Below, piece after piece: positions 28,150-39,526 of a stretch of 64,000 nucleotides of DNA. This DNA is from Macrostomum lignano (lineage: Eukaryota), in NCBI GenBank assembly GCA_002269645.1, contig NIVC01000428.1:186001-250000 (forward strand), in the 5' to 3' direction. Made by a program: the position numbers and the translations under genes. The first letter of the stretch is position 1. Each line of letters opens with the position of its first letter. The notes beneath the pieces were generated by a model that saw only the letters and a program-made list of their open reading frames with translations, searched no databases and was not told the DNA's origin.

Positions 28150-31100
28150 TCAGCGACAGTCTGCCGGCTCCGGCAGCACCACGTGGAACTGGGCCTCGTC
28201 GTCTAGCAGGCGACGCGAGTCCAAGTCCAACATATCGTCGACTTCCACCTTGATGCCGCGGCTGGCCAGCTCGGCCTTCCGCTGCATCAGCGCTGACTCC
28301 AGCTGGCGCATCTTGGCGGCCACGTCAATCCGGCAGACCGGGTGCGGCTCCTCGCAGCCGCTGCAGTCGGCAGGACTCTCCATCGCCGAGTCGCTGTCCA
28401 CCGAGGGCGAAGGTTTCGCCTTCTCGACTTCCAGCTCGGTGTCGTCCAAGTCGAGTTCCACTTCGCCGGCTGTTGGAGGCAGCGACGAAGGCAGCGGCGA
28501 GGCGAGTGACGACAGCGATGGCGTTGACGACGGCTGCGGCGTCTGGGGCGGCGGCAGCGCGGGTGGAAGCAGACAGAGCTGCTGCTGATGATGCAGCGAG
28601 CCCTTGTTGCGGACGTGCCGGGGCAGGTAGATGTTCTTGCAGTGAATGAGCTGGTGCGCCCGCAACCGGCTGGTGCTGATGAAGGACCTGCCGCACGAGG
28701 CGCACTGGAAGGGCCGCTCGCCGCTGTGCACCCGCTCGTGCACCTGCCAATTCGAAATTCGTGTTGGATTCGTAAAGCCTACTCTAGATTGAGGAGGCGG
28801 CCCAGCCTGAGGATCTGGGAGGGTGGCTGGCGGTCCAGCCTGAGGATCTGGGAGGGTGGCTGGCGGCCCAGCCTGAGGATCTGGGAGGGTAGAAGCCCAG
28901 CCTGAGGATCTGGGAGGGTAGAAGCCACTACTAAGGACGCATTTATCCGGGCGTTTTGGAGGCGGGGTGGGTGTCAACCCTCCTCGCCTCTCATTGGCTG
29001 GCGCCCCGATCACTAGGTGATCGATACGCGTATCGATATCGGCGCTCGGCGCGCGCACGCCGCAGGCGCGTGGCGCCAAGCGCCGCAGGCGCACCCTCCC
29101 GATATGTGCACCCTCCCGAGCCGCAGGCGACCCTTCAGAGCAGCAGGCGCCCATCCCGCAGGGGTACCCTCCCGATATGTATGCGCACCCTTCCGATATG
29201 TATGTCGCAGGCCCCCATGCTGCAGGCGCCCCATGCCGCAAGCACCCCGAGTGTACACTCTACCGAGCCGCAGGCACCCCGAGTGTACACTCTACCGAGC
29301 CGCAGGCACCCGAGTGTACACTCTCGCGATATGTACACTCTACCACTCTCCCGATATGTAAGATATCTAGTCAGCGATATTAGGCTAGTGAAAACTACTT
29401 ATAGTAGATGAAATTGCGTATATTTACATAAAAAGTAGATAAAACATATTGGTAGGTGTGAATAATGACGCATAATACATATTGGAGCATATGAGCAGCA
29501 AAAACACACAATGTAGGTGCATGGGCAGAAATAGACAAAGCAGGTACTGTAGGCGCTACATAGGTGGAAATACACACAGTATAATGCAGGTGCATACATA
29601 CACACAATGTAGGTGCAAATTGAGTATAATACAGGAAAATTACATAGCATATAATGTAGGCGCATTTTAAACGATACATTTTGCATATTAACCCGCAGGC
29701 ACAAAGTATATATCGGTCATAGGATAAAATACACACACTGGAAGTTAAGTATAATACAACATATGTATGCAAAATTAAGCATATAATGTAGGTGCAAAGT
29801 AAAATATCCAGCCCAGGATATTCGAGACACGCCCCCAGAGTCAGGGCCGGGGGATCCCAATGTACAGTGCGGGCGGAGTAACATAGAGAAATTCCAATTC
29901 CTCCCCAGGGCCGGGGGATCCTAGCGGAGTACAGTTCAGGTAGGAGCGTTCCTAGTCTGCAACCCATAGCTTCCAAATAGGGTACGAGGGGCCAATGTTT
30001 CGAGAGGGGATCCTCAGTACAGTGCGGTCAGAGAGGAGTAACATAGAGAAATTCCTCCCCAAGCCCCAAATAAGGTTTTTTCAAGGGGATCCCAAGTACA
30101 GTGAGGGCAGAGAGAAATTCCAATTCCTCCCCAAATGGGGGTTATCAAGGACCCCTCACATTGCACAGGGCGGGCAGAATAACAGACCGCATACAAATAG
30201 GGGTTTTAGCGGATCCCAAGTACAGTGCGCTCCCTGGTGTCAAATGATGAAGGAATCCCGCCCCCCAATGCACAGTGCGCTCCGGGGTGTTAAATGAGGA
30301 AGGATCCCGCTCAATGTACAGTGGAGGTGCCAAATGAGTAAGGACCCCTAAGTACAGTGCGGGCGTAAAACCATTTTCATCCCCACGAGTCAAGGGATCC
30401 CAAGTGGGCACATAGGGGAATCCCAGGCGTAAAAAAGATAGATCCTTATCTTTCACTCACTCCCGAAAGCCATACGGGCGGCTAGCGGCCCCATACACCC
30501 TCTTAGTCATCACGCGCTGGAAAGTCTTGTCCATCTCGAGGGTCCTTATTGTACAACTGGCCTTATCGCGCCTGAACTGGGCCTGGGGCAGGCGTACAGT
30601 CCCGCCGTGACGCAGAATTTCCTGCAGCTCGTCCTCGCGCTCGGAAATCTCGGGCGTGACTCTGATGCCCTTGCACTTGAGCACCGAGTACAGCGACCCG
30701 TCGGGCTTCTCCACCACGTACCGGTAGAGCTTGGGGCCTCCCGTGGTGAACTGTACCATGCGGCAGCCAGCAGGTACCTCGTCAGTCCACTGCCCCAAAC
30801 TCGAACCGCCCGGAGGCTCGTACTCGCCCGGGAGCAGCGGTATACGACCCTGGGAGGAGGAGAAGGATAAAAAGTGTTAAGGGGAGAAAGAGAGACAGAG
30901 ACAGTGAAAAAATTACTTACGAATCAGTATCGGCGTAAATGACGCGGGTTCCTAGACCCTCCAGAGCCTCGTAGAGTCGCAGCCGGGCGTGGGAGGTGGT
31001 GAAAACGCCAATAGGTACATTAGCGTACTTGAAAGCCCGCTCGCCAGCACCGCCAAATCGGGGCTTGTACTCGAGCATCATGAAGCTCTCCCCAATTGGC

Positions 31101-34100
31101 TCGCACGACTTGACCTTGATCGAGGGGTCGGTCAGGCGCTGCAGCCACGCCTCGTAGCTGTCCACAATCTCTGTGGAGGTCAGGTCGTCGCGCTGGCAGA
31201 ATTTGCCCCAGAGCCTGCAGGGGAAAAATAAATTTTTGTATATCTGGCTACTGTAAGTAGAAAAACACGGTCCCCACTGCAAGTAGAAAAAACTTACGAG
31301 TTTAGAAAAATCTTGGCAACAAAGCGCAAGCCAGGATTCTCCTCCACCTTTTCCAGCCGGACGCCTTCGCGTTCGAAAAAGCTGGCCATGTAGGCAGCCT
31401 TGGCGTCCTCAGCCATCCCCGGCGAACCGCTAGACTCTGCTTTGAGCTTCAAAAAAGTGTTTACATAATCTGCAAACAGGCCCGTGCGAGTCTCGGTCCA
31501 ATAGGCCAGGGCATGAACTGACTGCAGCTTGTAACCCAACTGCAGGGCTTTGTGGAGCTCTGGGGTCGACCACGTGCCGCGGAGCATTCTCTCAGCGTCA
31601 GTGTGTGTACACTCGCTGCTGCACTGGGTCTCCATGCAGACGCGGCAGAGGCCGAAAACCAACTTCTTGTTAATCTTGGCGGGCAGTAGCGGGATGTGGA
31701 GATTGGTTGGCGGCAGAATCGACACCTCGGCGATGCCAAAATACCGGGCCAGCTGCAGCTCATCCAGTAGATGAGGCTCGGGGTGGTGTACCGGGTGCCC
31801 GACCGGGTACTTGTCAAACTTGTTGACAGTCGGGTAGAGCGACACCTAGGGGATAAGGATAAGATAAACTCAAACGCATGTCAACTGTGTGTGTACAAGT
31901 GTACAAACTTACCACATCCCGATAGCGCAGCTCTACAGTCTCGGTGGCCTCGGCGTGCGGGACAAAAGCCTCGGTACGGCCGCCAAACAGGGCATCCTCC
32001 AGGCGAATAGGCTGCTGGACTGGCGCTCCCTCGTCCTGATAGTCGTGCTCCCACAGAACACGCACATTGTATGCAGTGGAGAGCAGCCGGGTGAAGCGCT
32101 CAGTCTCCTCATAAATTGCTCGCATTGGCTGGTTCTTGAGCGGGTGCAGCACGTCGCCGTTGGGGAAGCACTTGGGACAGCCATGGTAGAAACAGCCATG
32201 AAACTGCAGCACTGTCCTGGTCTCTGGGTCGAAGCCGTCGACCTTACGGCCCATGGCGAAAGCCTCGCCGCCAGAATCGGCTGTCCGCAACCGGCCGCCA
32301 AACTCGGTTGCATTTAAATGTGCCAGCCAGCACCGCGCCTTGTGCGACTGTACATCGGACCGGCGGGAAATCACCCCAAGAGTGTTGGGCTCCATAAACT
32401 TGGTGGTGAATACCGACATGGCCAAGCCCGCAATGGTGTTGGATTGAACAAATGCGTCCAGTCCGCAAATGTCCTTAATCAGGCGGGCATATTTCAGGCA
32501 GCCTTCCCGCAAAATTAACGTGTCCTGCAGGCAATAGTCCAGGTACGCCTTATTGAAATTAAACACCTGTCCCTCCTGCTTGGCCAGCCAGTCGGCGATG
32601 GAGTCATGCTGCTTATTCTTCTTCCCGCCGTACATATCAATTGAGCAGTAGGGACCGACGTACCCCCAATTTTGAGGCTGATTGAAGACGTGCGGGAAAT
32701 CTCCTTTGGTCAGTTGGGTGCCCAAACCAAGCGCCTTTGGGAATTGCGCCAGACCAATAGGGATGAAATTGAGGCTGTCCTTGAAGGTGATCTTGTCGCA
32801 CTTCATATACATTAGGCGGCTGTTCTGGAAGATCACTTGCGGCTTCTTCTTGGCCAGTCCGTTGAGTAGGGCGCCGAGCAGGAGGAATGCGTCATACGCA
32901 GAGCCATTGTGCGCAATAGCAATTGCCCCCTGCTTGAACACACTAGTCAGCCAGCAGTAAAAGGCATCGATAGAGTGCGGCCCGACAGATACAAACTCTC
33001 GCATCCCACAGGCACAGTCATTGTGCGAGACACAGCTCGTGAAATCGAGTGCCAAATCGCGTCCCGCAATGCAATTGGCTGAGCTGTGTAGTCCCCCGCA
33101 CGCGCTGCAGCGGGGCCTGGGGAAGAGTTTGGGACACGCCTCGCAGGAGGTGGCAGCCGTAACCAAGTGTACCCGGTGCTGCTTGCCAGAGTCCACGTAC
33201 GTCTCGAAATCATAGTAAACATACGGGGCGCTAGACTCTTTGGCTTTGGGCGGGGTGACAAAGCACTCGTGGGTGGCAGTTTCGTCGTACTGCTTGCAGA
33301 CTGGGCACTTGGCATAACCACACTGATGCTCAGGGGGCTGGCCTACTTTTAGTTCTTCTAGATAGCCACACGTGCCGCAAACGTGGACCGAATCACAGCG
33401 CGATCTGCCGGATTGATGCCTACTTTTGTGTTAGGTACCTGCTTTTTATTAAATACACTGCACCAAAAGCAACTTTAATCGGTACATACTGTGTTTTTGT
33501 AGAGGTGCCGGTATGCTTTTTAATACATATGTCTTTAGTGTAATTTGGTGTGCTTCTTCAACTTGGCTCGCGAATCTTGCACTATGGCTCTCTAGTGGAA
33601 AGTACTCTTACTTGTGCTGGTTGCGGGTGATTGTAAGGCTTTCTGCTTGACTTCTTTAGTTTACTTGATGGTTAAATGAGGAGTGGGAGCTGACGCGCCT
33701 ACCTCGGGGGAGGAATGCAGCTCCGCGGTCTGATGCAGCGCTTTCTGTTACCCCTCTCCGTCCGCACTGTACATTGAGCGGGATCCCCTCAAGTGTTAAA
33801 ACTCCCATTTGGAGGCTCTGGGGAGAGTTGCAGTGGAGTTCAACAAATTTCTGATAAGATCTCTTGCGGGGGCATGACACTCGTCTCGAAATAAAAAAAA
33901 CCTGAACAAGTGCTGGATGCCCTTACTAGTTGGCTGGTTGTTACCTCTACAATTGTGTACTATTTCTGTCAATATTTTCCCCTGCATTATGTCAATATGT
34001 GCTACAGGGTGTCATAATATGATACTTTTACGCACTAATATGTACACTCGTATCATAATTTTCCTGCATTGTGTCTGCTTCTACATCTACGATGTGTGTA

Positions 34101-37100
34101 TTTTAACCTATCCCCCGATATATAATATGTGCCCGCGATGTGTGGTAATATGCCGAAATGTACATGTACAAAATCAATAGTGTGTATATACGTCTGCATC
34201 GTTTTTGTCTATGTTTTAATAATACACACCTGCATTATACTGGCTTTCCATATGAGTGGCAACTCCTTTGTAACCTACAATTCGTTGGCTCAGTGTTAGT
34301 GGTATTTTGTAATTAAATTACTACGTCTAAATGTTGTATTATTATTGAATTCAATTATTATTGAATTTCACTCCTCATGTGCTAGAGAGGTCTAATTGTA
34401 ATATAATCTTGCTATTAATCTACCATCTCTACTGTAAGTAGACTGTGACTTGGTGTCTGGGCTCGAGTTGTGTACTCTTTGTATGAATGCATTCTTGGTG
34501 TGTAACTCCTGACCATCCCTTCCCTCTGGGAGCACTGCAGATAGACTAGTATGGCTTGGTATTCAGGGCTGGTGTGTGCACGTAATACTCTGTAATATTT
34601 ACCGGACTCGGGTGGGGAAGCTCGTTGTACGGCTCTCTCCGTGGGGTGTGATTCACCGCCTCTCTGTCCCGCGCCTCCTGCCAGGGGAGCTCTCTCCGCG
34701 GGGGTGACTTACACACTGCCTCTGTCCCGCGCCGCGTGCTGTGACATGCCGGGTAGCGTCCTCTATCTCCTACTGCCTCCACGCACTCTCTGTCCCCCTC
34801 CTGCTACAGGGGGCTGGTTGCTCGCTGTACAGGGCAGCGTCAGCATCTGGGTTTCCTTCCTGCACCGTCTACCCCACCACTATACTGACTAACCGCATGC
34901 ACACGACATTGGTGGGAGGGGTGGAGTTCCCCACTGACGGGTGTACACCTACTCGACGCTGAAGGTACACTTGCTGAACGCCCACCCTGTCAGATGTACA
35001 CTTGCTGAACACCCATCCTGTCAGATGTACACTCGCTGGACGCCCACCCTGCCGGGTGTACACCCCGCCGTCCCTTCCCTCCAGGAGCACTGCAAGTAGA
35101 CTAGTATGGCTTGGTATTCGGAGTTGGCGTGTGTACGTAATATACTCTTTGTAATATTTACTTGACCTGGGTTTGTAAGTTCTAATAACATATAAATGAC
35201 TACTGCTGACTAGTTGACGCATCTGGATGGTGTGATAAAAACTAGTAACGTACCGTGATTTCGAGAGAAATCCTAGCACAATACTGTTCTGTCCGGCATG
35301 TGGAAAAGTATTTGCCCCGCCTTCGCTTACTCATACTGCACACAGACAAAGCTTATCTCTATTAGCAATCTGTTCGTGGTGGTTTAGAAGGATACTGTCT
35401 TCCTGTATATAGCTCTCTATCCCTTCATCACTCGTAATAACTTCATAAATGCTCGCTTGACCAATGGCTGGTACTGAACTAATAATTCATACGATACATA
35501 ATGGTTAATACTTTCTAACTCCGTACAGCTCACAAGTTTCTACTCTCTACCTTATCAGTAACATTAAAATAAAAAGGTAAAATTTGCTGGTTTTGTGCCT
35601 TGTTTGCTTACTTTTCTATTAAAATACTTGCGGTTTATAATTGAAAATGTCTGCTTTTTATTCAATTTTATGTGGTTTGAAGGTTTATTTTTGCTAAAAT
35701 GCCTGGTTTCTTATAAAAATTTCTACTCTCGACAATGATTGTGTCAGCTATTTCATTAAAATAACCTACTTTTTGAATAAAACGTTGTATTTAAGCCCCT
35801 AGTTTTTTCAAAACATAATTGAAACAGCTTACATAGAGCATGCAGACCCCGAAACCCCTCTAGTGTGCCCTGATTTCAGCGGTCTGACGGTTAAGATCTG
35901 TATTTTTACACTATATTTTCCTTCATACAGCAATACAGGAGGGTATGGAAGAGTGAGTCTGGCGGGAGAGGGGGCTTGTGGGGTGATGAGGATGCGTACA
36001 CACAGTTTAGCCTGTTTTAGCCTACCTTTTGGGCTAATATACTTACTATTATTACTACCATTATACCTACTATGTACATACTATTATACTACCCGCTATT
36101 AAATATGCTGCACTAAAACCAACTTTTGAAAATACATAGCGTGTTTTGGTCTATTCTCCCTCACGTCTCTGTCCCTACACGTGCTCTGCCCGCTTTGGTC
36201 TCTGTTTGTGTACCTCTCTGTAACGTCTCTGTACGCTCAGACTGGTTTCTCCGTCCCCGCACGCGCCTCTACTAAAGTTTGCTGTTACCTACCCCTACAC
36301 ACTGCTCTCTGTCTCCCTCCGCGCACACCTCACTGCCCTTGCATGTAATTTGCATGCCTTGCATGCCCTGTCCTGCCCTCGCGTGGGTCCCTGCCTATAC
36401 ATAGCTACCGGACCCTACCTCTCTCTGTGCCTTGCTCGCAACTCTGTCCCAGGCTCCCCTTCATACTTCTCTGTCCCAGGCCCCCTTCATACTTCTCTGT
36501 CCCGGGCTGTAACTGGCTGACACGCGCCTCTCTGTTCCCCAGCCTGCGTGGCTGCCTACCCTGCACACTGCTCTCTGTCCCCCTCCGCGCCTCTCTATCA
36601 TCCTATTCCTGCAGCTGACCGTGCCGTTCAGCTCTGTCCACGCACGGCTCCACCCCTGCCCGTGTCTCACTGTACACTGCTCCCTGCTGCATGGCTCCCT
36701 TACCCTGCGCGTTTGCTTCCTATCTCCCTCCTGCTCCATATGTTTCTGTTCCCTCACACTACGCACACGTGGCTGGCTCTCTGTCCAAACACATCTCTGC
36801 TCCTCCACTCTATCCTCGCGTGGCCCCTTGACGGTTCGCATGCCCCTGCATACCCTGCCTGCCTCTCTGTCCCCTGCAACTGGGGAGGGAGCTCTCTATC
36901 CTCTGTATGGCTTTCTCTGTGGGGTGTGTGTGACTCACACTACCTCTCTGTCCTAGCATGCGCCTCTCTATCCGGCTCCTGCAGCAGGCTGTGTTATTCA
37001 CATCTCTTTCCACCCACCCTCTGCCCGTACACGCTCAGTGTACAGGGCTGCGTCAGCATCGGGGTTAAAACTTCTCGCTCCCTATGCTTCAACAGTATAA

Positions 37101-38450
37101 CAACCTAGTGGCTGGTTCTCTGTCCGCCCCACCCCTCTCTGCCCGTACACTCTCACTGTACAGGGCTGCGTCAGCGTTAGGGTTGAAACTTCTCGCTCCC
37201 TATACCCCACAACCGTGTAGTGTCCTAGTATGGGCGCGACCTGGGTTCGATTTCGCTAGTTGAGATGTAGGTGAGAGAGGGGAAGAGGCCCGTATCGATG
37301 ACTACATATCGGTGTACACACATATCGGGAGAGTGTACACTCGGGGTGCCTGCGGCATGGGCGCCTGCTGCATGGGCGCCTGCGGCTCGGGAGGGTGCGC
37401 TTGGGATCTGATTGATTTGGGATCTGATTGATTTGGGATCTGATTGATTTATTGGGATCTAATATCGGTAGGTGCGCCTGCGGCTGGGGAGGGTCGCGGG
37501 TTCGAGTCGCCGATATCGATACGGGTATCGATCACCTAGTGATCGGGGCGCCAGCCAATGAGAGGCGAGGAGGGTTGACACCCACCTCACCTCCAAAATC
37601 GCGCCATTCGGAATCCCTTAGTAGTGAAGCCCAGTCTGAGGATCTGGGAGGATGGCTGGCAGCCAAGCCCGAGGATCTGGGAGGGTAGAGGCCCCGTCTG
37701 AGGATCTGGCAGGGGCTGGCGGACCAGCCTGAGGATCTGGGAGGGTGGCTGGCGGCCCAGCCTGAGGATCTGGGAGGGTAGCTGGCGGTTCAGCCTGAGG
37801 ATCTGGGAGGGTAGAGGCCCCATCTGAGGATCTGGGAGGGTAGAGGCCCCGTCTGAGGATCTGGGAGGGTGGCGGCCCAGCCTGGGGATCTGGGAGGGTG
37901 GCGGCCCAGCCTGAGGATCTGGGAGGGTGGCGGCCCAGCCTGGGGATCTGGGAGGGTGGCGGCCCAGCCTGGGGATCTGGGAGGGTGGCGGCCCAGCCTG
38001 GGGATCTGGGAGGGTGGCGGCCCAGCCTGGATATGGGAGGGTGGCGGCCCAGCCTGGGGATCTGGGTGACTCAAGTCAAGTCCGGCAGGGCAGCTACTAG
38101 CTTACCTGCAAGTCGTATTTCCTGCCGTAGGACTTTCCACACACTCCGCACTCGTGCCTAACCAGCTCGCCGGTGTGTATTTTCATGTGAGCGCGCATGT
38201 TGTCCTTGCGGCTGAAGGTTTTGTAGCACTGGTTGCAGCTCCAGGGCCGGTCGCCGCTGTGTATCTTGGCGTGCCTCTCGTATTCGTATTTGAATTTGAA
38301 CACCTTCCGGCAGAAGCCGCAGGGGTATAAAACAGCGCCTGCGTCGGCTGCCTCGCTGCGAAGTCGCTCAGCTCGGCGGGAGATCTCCGACATTGGGTCC
38401 GGGTCCAGCACCACCGTCCTGGGGGCTGCCGGTGCCAGTGCCTCGCTCAT
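28150..38450 (-). CDS. C2H2 zinc-finger protein (4 fingers), two coding exons separated by a 9.4-kb intron
   Basis: Exon 38106-38450 (CGFC..HAKIH, CNQC..HMKIH, CGVCGKSYGRKYDLQ) splices GT-AG to exon 28150-28743 (VHERVHSGERPFQCASC..HQLIH), completing finger 3 across the intron. An acceptor at 38469-38470 suggests a further upstream exon. Confidence 0.88.
28790..28926. repeat. Minisatellite (GGCCCAGCCTGAGGATCTGGGAGGGT-like, 26-30 bp), left part
   Basis: Same unit and orientation as 37626-38065; it is the target array split by the pPolB element. Confidence 0.85.
28927..37625 (-). mobile_element. Polinton/Maverick-derived inverted-repeat element carrying only a recognisable pPolB gene
   Basis: Ends ACTACTAAGG / CCTTAGTAGT flanked by GAAGCC on both sides (28921-28926, 37626-37631; 6-bp TSD). 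Near-identical inverted block about 28958-29045 versus about 37507-37595, plus subterminal repeats. Internal protein-primed PolB. Confidence 0.85.
30457..33430 (-). pseudogene. Protein-primed DNA polymerase B (Polinton-type) with 3 spliceosomal introns and one frameshift
   Basis: N-terminal Cys/His region, ExoI YDFET, ExoII HNGSAYD, ExoIII YCLQD, VSR-like insert (VDG...QFHGCFYHGC), FGGRTE, motif A DV|VSLYP, motif B KIFLNS|LWGKF, motif C YADTDS|V, and C-terminal KR..SRPYGF. Introns at 31846-31912, 31215-31297 and 30850-30920. One-base frameshift near 30835. Confidence 0.92.
37626..38065. repeat. Minisatellite (GGCCCAGCCTG(A/G)GGATCTGGGAGGGT-like), right part
   Basis: About 16 degenerate copies filling the rest of the zinc-finger intron. 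Confidence 0.88.
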
Positions 38451-39526
38451 AGGTGTGGCAGTGTCGGTCTGGGCAAGAGTAGTAAGTCCAAAAGGTGAAA
38501 TTTAGCATCAGTTTCTCGTTCATTTATTTGAATGAGACTAAGTACAAAAGTACAAAGGGAGATCTGGCTGGATGGTTTAGAGGGGATCTCAGACGAGAGA
38601 GCTACGTAAGAAAATCTATCAAGAAACGTAATGATAAAAAAATTTAATAGATCTAAATAAACTAGACAAGATTCAGAAGTGAACAAAACTGAACTTAATA
38701 ACTTACGAGTACATCACAAGTATTTGCGAGAGAGAAAGTGGCCGATGGTAGTCTCATGCAATTATAGATGCTCAAAATGAAATGTTCAGAAATTTCCTTA
38801 ATGACTCAATTACTCAATTCTTACTCGTAACTTTAAATAAAGAATTACTGGTTTAATACAAGTCTACCGCTAAACTAAGTTTTTAATATTAGATAAGACT
38901 CCAATACTTAATTCAGAGTGCAGTCCGCAGGCGAGAGAGTTCAGGATCGGGATCGAATTTTAAACCTTAGTATTGATTTCTGAGCCTGCCTGAGGCTTGG
39001 CCTGCACGCAGAGAACTGGCGCAATTATATAATGTTGGTTAAGATTGGGCCTACCCCCAGGGGTGGAGGCTTGGAGGGGGCAGTCGGGCCAAATGGGACG
39101 TCTAGCTTGGCTGACTAATTTTGGGGCCCAGGCGGCGCGCGCGTGCCTGAGGTCCCGGCCCCGGGGGGGGGTAGGGGAATGGGGTGGCTGGCTGGCTGAT
39201 CATAGGGGGTTGGCCCGTACCAGACTGACTTAGGCGGCCCCACCCAGTGCAAATAAACAAAGAGAGCGCCGGCCAGGGGTGGTGGGGGCTAATGGCTGGA
39301 GGGCAGCCGCGGCCCCCCGCCCGCGCCGCCCCCCCCCCCCCCCGATTCAAAACGACAGATGGGAATGGAGGGAAACAAAGAGTCATAAAACTGAGGCGGC
39401 AGGCGTGTGGGATTCCCAGTCCCCTCGAATTGGGGGATTCTTTCCCTCCCCACTGGCGCCTCTTTGTATTAATTTATTGATATGAAGAAAAGTTACTGCA
39501 GGCGAGCTGCCATAACTCCAGCCCAT

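Follow-up and report, generated by a model that had tools for sequence, protein, structure and literature searches.

How can an integrated element that carries a protein-primed DNA polymerase of family B (pPolB), of the Polinton type, and neither an integrase nor a capsid gene, come to be inserted in a genome? The question is raised by an 8.7-kb element in Macrostomum lignano (assembly GCA_002269645.1, contig NIVC01000428.1), located within the 64,000 nucleotides that were analysed (positions 186,001 to 250,000 of the forward strand), hereafter the window. The element is a broken hybrid copy derived from half of a virus, likely of the Polinton type and with two segments, the halves of which would help each other in trans. 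We infer the complementation and the formation of virions; the system is known here from its genes, ends, insertions, selection and the splicing of its polymerase. A preliminary description had proposed a compact lineage that keeps its own replicase and borrows its integration, much like a linear plasmid. The lineage is indeed old, multi-copy, devoid of integrase and capsid and in need of integration in trans, but the replicase is incomplete in this copy and a partner exists: an integrase- and capsid-bearing element with matching ends and no polymerase is found in the same genome, which does not fit a lone plasmid-like satellite.

Polymerase segments and integrase/capsid segments

The pPolB of the window copy, encoded on the minus strand, matches PF03175 (Pfam). 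Scoring of all 134 genomic candidates for one exon of this gene gave 45 full-length matches of at least 95% identity, the window included (family 1, POL-1), and a second polymerase family (POL-2) at about 71% to the family-1 exon. Full family-1 copies are about 9 kb long and combine pPolB with a PC4-like gene in divergent orientation, as seen at 38 of 45 loci. The PC4 profile matched with an E value of 0.034 in family 1 and passed the cut-off in family 2, and a separate search for PC4 found nothing. Some full POL copies also carry an acidic open reading frame (ORF) or a dUTPase; the accessory ORFs had no sequence match in Atlas, PHROGs or the PDB. All five large exons are present in 38 of 46 loci, and with a pN/pS of 0.11 the full copies appear to be under purifying selection. 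The two families have four intron positions in common, one of the introns being in frame in family 2; a classification of family 2 as intronless was therefore rejected.

Full POL copies code for a family B polymerase of the protein-primed kind with terminal protein (TP) and vOTU domains, as in the canonical Polinton; the TP assignment relies on its position and on secondary structure, none of the PDB matches listed being to a TP. In the model of a family-2 protein the fold resembles that of phi29 polymerase with Z 14.8, that of an OTU protease with Z 8.4 and that of Vsr with Z 8.2, and all 40/40 aligned proteins retain the Cys and the His of the vOTU. From PF03175 and the OTU and VSR features, rather than from a labelled tree, the polymerase is assigned to the Alpha/pPolB2 class (PMC8502044, 10.1101/2023.08.22.554363). 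A FastTree phylogeny with weak deep support places both families together in a single clade, which has a long stem. Closest relatives outside the clade are about 30-40% identical, and UniRef proteins 80-94% identical to a polymerase-family member are labelled Macrostomum lignano. A diverged POL subfamily (L161, C392:505559-510818) has 81-93% amino-acid identity to family 1 and an end word of its own.

A 6-bp target-site duplication (TSD) of its own was found at 17/17 polymerase loci with both ends in view, and in 30 of 31 end pairings. A 33-nt pattern of the conserved terminal core has 188 exact matches in the genome, compared with none for the control. The first 100 of these yielded 36 end pairs, of which 31 span 8.1-10.5 kb, four are shorter and one spans 40.6 kb; none is 12-25 kb apart, and the single long pair is explained by a canonical Polinton nested in it. 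At C271:276939-317558 (L011, L057-L059, L012) a 32-kb canonical Polinton with the TSD GAGATA is nested in a POL-1 copy.

A search with a canonical integrase led to a distantly related family of integrases, including a copy flanked by ACTACG-type ends. In 20/20 loci fetched, belonging to two families (CAP-1 and CAP-2), the element encodes an integrase (INT), mCP, a pX-like ORF, MCP, a protease, an ATPase and a few small ORFs, and no pPolB match was found inside any of the 20. The integrase matches rve, and the MCP is a double jelly-roll (DJR) protein by an Atlas score of 0.98 and F54H12.2-like matches. The protease was assigned by 34% identity to an ORF of a co-resident Polinton, and has no sequence match in Atlas, PHROGs or the PDB; we take the order of its catalytic motifs to support the assignment. 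A genome search with PF04665 returned no ATPase, which is uninformative because ATPases are present in the genome. CAP elements are about 10.3 kb long (range 9.6-11.9 kb), and a TSD is seen in 13 of the 16 with both ends. At least about 28 integrase loci per family, about 56 in total, were counted by eye among the best 114 of 1601 candidates, a list reaching down to 35% identity; another genome search covered the best 91 of 974 candidates. The MCPs P0202-P0204, on short ENA/Logan contigs, are 78-80% identical to that of CAP-2, farther than CAP-1 (88%), and possibly represent a third family or another host. One early candidate for the partner, L008 (C558:43471-53355), was rejected: it is a derivative of about 1.1 kb with ACTACT ends and a tandem Gypsy LTR element with three LTRs.

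The gene sets of POL and CAP elements thus complement each other without overlap, and the segments that carry them have termini in common, as in a segmented virus. With pPolB on one element, integrase and capsid on another, and matching ends, a split-genome virus is likely. It is probable that the genome harbours two bipartite viruses derived from Polintons, each segment integrating on its own, together with size-matched defective satellites.

Alternatively, a 19-20 kb parent might still be present and have escaped detection, both halves having arisen from it by deletion. Only the best search candidates were scored, the assembly is fragmented, and a decayed full-size Polinton with a VSR-type pPolB does exist (C234:57207-77800, L101-L103; its integrase, ATPase and capsid genes are interrupted by other elements). 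That element is, however, not the sister of the POL clade in the FastTree phylogeny. No joined form occurs among the 36 family-1 end pairs or three long family-2 pairs, nor was an element carrying both halves found among the searched loci, and the roughly 56 INT loci coincide with pPolB matches on just three contigs, 44-466 kb apart (overlap checked by eye). Searched against 71 polymerase, palindrome or window sequences, the CAP proteins matched only in flanks or in a nested canonical element. Deletion derivatives would moreover have long terminal inverted repeats (TIRs) in common, whereas here about 30 bases are common. We regard a missed parent as highly improbable. Nor does the pPolB lineage stem from a single deletion event in a 15-20 kb Polinton of the same genome.

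Terminal words and the depth of the split

All classes begin with ACTAC, 22 bases and TTTT. In the end alignment, in which positions 1-6 and 28-36 are set by the search pattern, bases 7-27 are hypervariable at fixed length: nucleotide diversity (pi) is 0.47, with 35 words in 73 ends, compared with 0.05 just inward of the word and 0.03 in a polymerase exon. The words are mosaic, even from one column to the next. CAP-1 words differ on average by 1.3 of 27 bases from a POL-1 or palindrome word (identical in 5/16), as against about 13 bases from family-2 words; POL-2 and CAP-2 words are 3.9-5.0 bases apart. The first 27-31 bases of POL and CAP come from one variable pool, while further inward they have little or nothing in common, blastn between the segments giving no match beyond the ends. 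Two POL/CAP pairs, each with its own end pool, are present in one genome. The right end of a CAP-1 copy on C150 (L184-L185) starts with POL-1-type first core bases and continues as CAP-1; judged from its sequence, this is a direct trace of end exchange.

When the two viruses are compared, synonymous divergence (dS) lies at 1.6-2.4 in the CAP genes and ranges from 2.2 to saturation in POL; dN/dS is 0.03-0.08 for MCP, ATPase and INT. Since POL and CAP are similarly near saturation, the split state seems to predate the separation of the two families.

Canonical Polintons are abundant in the genome. All families with ends in view begin AGTAG, and their pPolBs have no blastp match to the window-type pPolB. 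A one-way parasitism would make CAP elements polymerase-less Polintons copied by a canonical pPolB, and POL elements independent satellites mimicking their ends. A canonical family does have pPolB-less derivatives, and the distant relatives of the capsid module mostly accompany the other pPolB class. CAP ends are nevertheless unlike any canonical end seen and draw on a mosaic word pool common with POL, and the pattern is present twice in parallel at similar depth, so that we consider parasitism quite unlikely, if less so than a missed parent. Further arrangements involve canonical elements: an AGTAGT-ended family has a 10.6-kb palindromic derivative (L127-L128, G000:C592:149057-159651; TSD TCTATG), each arm of which holds an integrase and a PC4-like gene, L004 is inserted in a canonical integrase gene, and L067/L068 lie between canonical capsid and protease genes.

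Several observations weigh against a clean two-segment system. The core of CAP-2 after base 27 resembles POL-1, not POL-2, which blurs the POL/CAP pairing. TSDs are absent in 3/16 partner copies, and most polymerase copies are broken (11/46 loci free of breaks), to which assembly errors may contribute. Canonical-family copies on C494 (L121-L122) and C738 (L125-L126), 11-12 kb long, have integrase, capsid and ATPase with only a pPolB fragment, so polymerase loss alone is not special; a full 14.3-kb relative of these copies is found on C114 (L129-L130). Distant metagenomic capsid relatives have pPolB on the same contig in 11 of 18 longer contigs (80 returned); where the contig is of sufficient length, they are ordinary elements in one piece. 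A joined form could also exist at low frequency, because the searches cover the best 114 of 1601 and 91 of 974 candidates and 100 of 188 end matches.

The window copy and its palindromic relatives

The window copy is a defective chimera of the 3' part of a POL-1 pPolB and one palindrome arm (Table 1): 28927-33411 matches the 9-kb polymerase elements, and 33412-37625 one arm of a palindromic family. The extent, ends and duplicated GAAGCC first noted for the element are all confirmed, and both close locus homologues in the assembly (L141 and L142) are element-free sites, with both flanks within 3.2 kb. The insertion point is a 29/33-bp minisatellite within what is predicted to be an intron of a host gene of the C2H2 zinc-finger type. 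The long symmetric arms that had been described are not confirmed: the two ends resemble each other over no more than about 0.3 kb, with 97% identity along 91 bp and 72% along about 310 bp, bases 7-27 mismatch at 14/21 positions, and the arms derive from two different parents.

Table 1. Features of the element and its surroundings (positions in the window)
Feature	Position	Strand	Remarks
Host C2H2 zinc-finger exons flanking the insertion	28150-28743 and 38106-38501	-	
Host C2H2 zinc-finger gene, predicted intron holding the element	28744..38105	-	
Left TSD copy GAAGCC (6 bp)	28921..28926	+	empty homologous sites agree
Element	28927..37625		8,699 bp; ACTACT...AGTAGT ends
Left end: ACTACT and 21-nt variable word	28927..28953	+	
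POL-1 terminal arm (in full copy L001 it belongs to a TIR of about 1.3 kb)	28927..30249	+	99.5% to L001
Conserved terminal core, common to POL-1 segments and palindromic satellites	28954..29044	+	97% to right end
Last pPolB exon, frameshifted near 30830	30457..30849	-	
GT-AG intron, 71 nt, predicted	30850..30920	-	same position in family 2; absent from the run joints listed
pPolB exon, second half of motif B to motif C (YADTD)	30921..31214	-	
GT-AG intron, 83 nt, spliced	31215..31297	-	skipped in 3/3 guessed-RNA runs, 0/1 DNA-type
pPolB exon, second half of motif A to first half of motif B	31298..31845	-	
GT-AG intron, 67 nt, spliced	31846..31912	-	skipped in 3/3 guessed-RNA runs, 0/1 DNA-type
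Large pPolB exon, 5'-truncated: Cys-rich region, Exo I-III, VSR insert	31913..33411	-	without terminal protein, vOTU
VSR-like (PD-(D/E)XK) insert	32018..32353	-	structure model
Chimera junction, POL-1 part / palindrome arm	33411..33412		also in C4851 with a different flank
Arm of non-coding palindromic satellite family (8-9.4 kb)	33412..37625		
Patch about 71% similar to the CAP-1 (integrase/capsid segment) terminal repeat	34653..35067		
Right end: core, 21-nt variable word, AGTAGT	37508..37625	-	word 1 base off CAP-1 copy C181
Right TSD copy GAAGCC (6 bp)	37626..37631	+	

The pPolB had been described as nearly complete. Its exonuclease and polymerase motifs are kept, but the gene is cut at the junction and frameshifted, and the TP and the vOTU Cys and His motifs are missing. 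It remains the only recognisable gene, as first described, no Pfam family reaching the cut-off in 32 other ORFs of at least 60 aa. Pfam, and tblastn with canonical and partner ORFs, found no hidden integrase or capsid in the window element or in full POL copies. The VSR-like insert is borne out by a structure model (pLDDT 94) that fits E. coli Vsr (1cw0) with Z 8.8 and an rmsd of 3.1 over 102 residues, and a mitoribosomal chain equally well (Z 9.1). Such an insert is known in pPolB2 of molluscs and marine nematodes (10.1101/2023.08.22.554363).

Three GT-AG introns interrupt the gene in the window. Two were skipped in all three runs, from three studies, that were guessed to be RNA, none of the listed runs being recorded as such, and not in the one DNA-type run. 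The intron-skipping contigs continue beyond 33411 into polymerase sequence, and hence derive from full copies. The chimera junction is unbridged among the joints listed in run contigs, which drop rare variants.

The palindromic family consists of near-perfect, non-coding palindromes, each with its own TSDs. Its type of arm occurs in 2/45 polymerase-exon loci, and the chimera junction in 2 of the best 40 of 153 candidates, in both cases the window and C4851. The C4851 twin is 99.93% identical to the window over 7.3 kb with a different flank; its other end, which has the same hexamer (CCTGTC), is apparently on C437/C1431, where another insertion cuts it off. A chimera without a priming domain has therefore moved, and needs help in trans; the window copy would have moved twice as a passive defective satellite. 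Palindromes and chimeras would arise by template switching and be carried along as defective genomes.

That the palindromes are fold-back assembly artefacts was rejected, as their flanks differ and their TSDs are direct repeats, although one on C996, with inverted flanks, may be such an artefact. Palindromes L002, L003, L006 and L010 have in common an asymmetric centre that is GC-rich and conserved. It measures about 92 nt, lies between (CA)n/(TG)n tracts, folds as an imperfect hairpin and could be the hairpin end of a half-length form. A target-site bias was considered as a clue to the helper and set aside as too weak: CAT/ATG occurs in 17/67 TSD-length flanks, where the expected fraction is 0.136 (p 0.007), and in 4/7 canonical TSDs.

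A possible segmented virus and its relatives

Polinton pPolBs carry a terminal protein that is released by vOTU (10.1101/2024.03.18.585575). The POL polymerase would likewise prime itself through its TP domain, released by its vOTU, and would copy any linear DNA whose first 27-31 bases are cognate. Insertion of the Polinton element is carried out by the rve integrase, and the partner's integrase would insert any DNA with cognate ends. The partner's capsid would hold a single molecule of about 8-11 kb, and this would account for the common size of segments, palindromes and chimera. Swapping and patching of ends between co-replicating molecules would produce one mosaic word pool per virus. Molecules with two different ends make up 11 of 31 end pairings; speculatively, these may fold into panhandles with mismatches, and patchy repair of the panhandles, perhaps carried out by the VSR domain, would reshuffle the words.

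The two halves might instead form a two-component transposon without a virion stage, complementing each other in the nucleus, with residual capsid genes. Spliceosomal introns common to both polymerase families suggest a long nuclear residence, and no relative of MCP or pPolB was found in viral_contigs. Strong purifying selection on MCP, ATPase and INT, between as well as within families, and the clustering of all classes, non-coding palindromes included, at 8-11 kb speak against this; it is unlikely, while the least so of the three alternatives considered. Selection and size clustering also suggest that both segments are needed and that they are encapsidated. We lean, though only just, towards segmented integrating DJR DNA viruses with one segment for replication and one for integration and virion, each packaged and integrated alone, represented by two sisters with separate reshuffled 21-base end codes (possibly through VSR patch repair) and capsid-sized defective swarms.

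The pair shares with canonical Polintons the TP-vOTU-Exo-Pol architecture (10.1101/2024.03.18.585575), an rve integrase, a DJR capsid, a protease, an ATPase, TIRs and 6-bp TSDs. Canonical Polintons are 15-25 kb (PMC6431247), whereas these elements are 8-11 kb, pPolB and integrase reside on separate 9-10 kb elements, and MCP, mCP, protease and ATPase are on the pPolB-less partner. Intact vertebrate Mavericks are intronless and end in (AGT)2, (AG)3 or (AC)3A (PMC8097293); here the polymerase gene is split by introns and spliced, and the ends are 5'-ACTAC. With pPolB and integrase not on one element, neither half is a canonical Polinton, though the pair works like one.

The nearest segmented precedent is found in bidnaviruses. 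BmBDV has a Polinton-derived pPolB and two similarly sized linear segments, which have conserved termini and are packed separately (PMC4061559). Bidnaviruses differ in their ssDNA and in a parvovirus-type capsid beside pPolB, and the available text of that source mentions no integrase; here the split is between replication and integration/morphogenesis, the capsid is DJR and both halves are integrated. No ORF for a parvovirus-type capsid or S3H helicase was found in the POL copies scanned. In pGKL-type systems the partner plasmid supplies transcription functions. Like POL, the cytoplasmic linear plasmids pGKL1/pGKL2, a helper-killer pair, involve a capsid-less pPolB replicon with a terminal protein and a two-element dependence (PMC13348850), but POL and CAP are nuclear, spliced and integrated, and the partner gives integrase and capsid. 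As passive derivatives, the window copy and the palindromes resemble Polinton remnants such as the pPolB-plus-TIR loci without INT in C. elegans (10.1101/2024.01.15.575659). Those have a known full-length parent, whereas both halves here are selected families for which no parent was found.

A full-text literature search returned no bipartite Polinton and none of these elements, its scope being literature other than Repbase (which may hold either half), supplements and most subscription papers; nor does a split Polinton appear in the available parts of PMC3014272, PMC12567637 and 10.64898/2026.10.13.758929. Polintons have been defined and surveyed by pPolB beside an integrase, and a large survey kept only integrase-linked pPolBs (10.1101/2023.08.22.554363). 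Such a filter would make a split form invisible, to be taken for debris. The split form shows a route from the single-piece Polinton to segmented viruses and capsid-less plasmids, both halves having been kept in a laboratory animal, and the size clustering of non-coding palindromes offers a testable handle on whether animal Polintons make virions.

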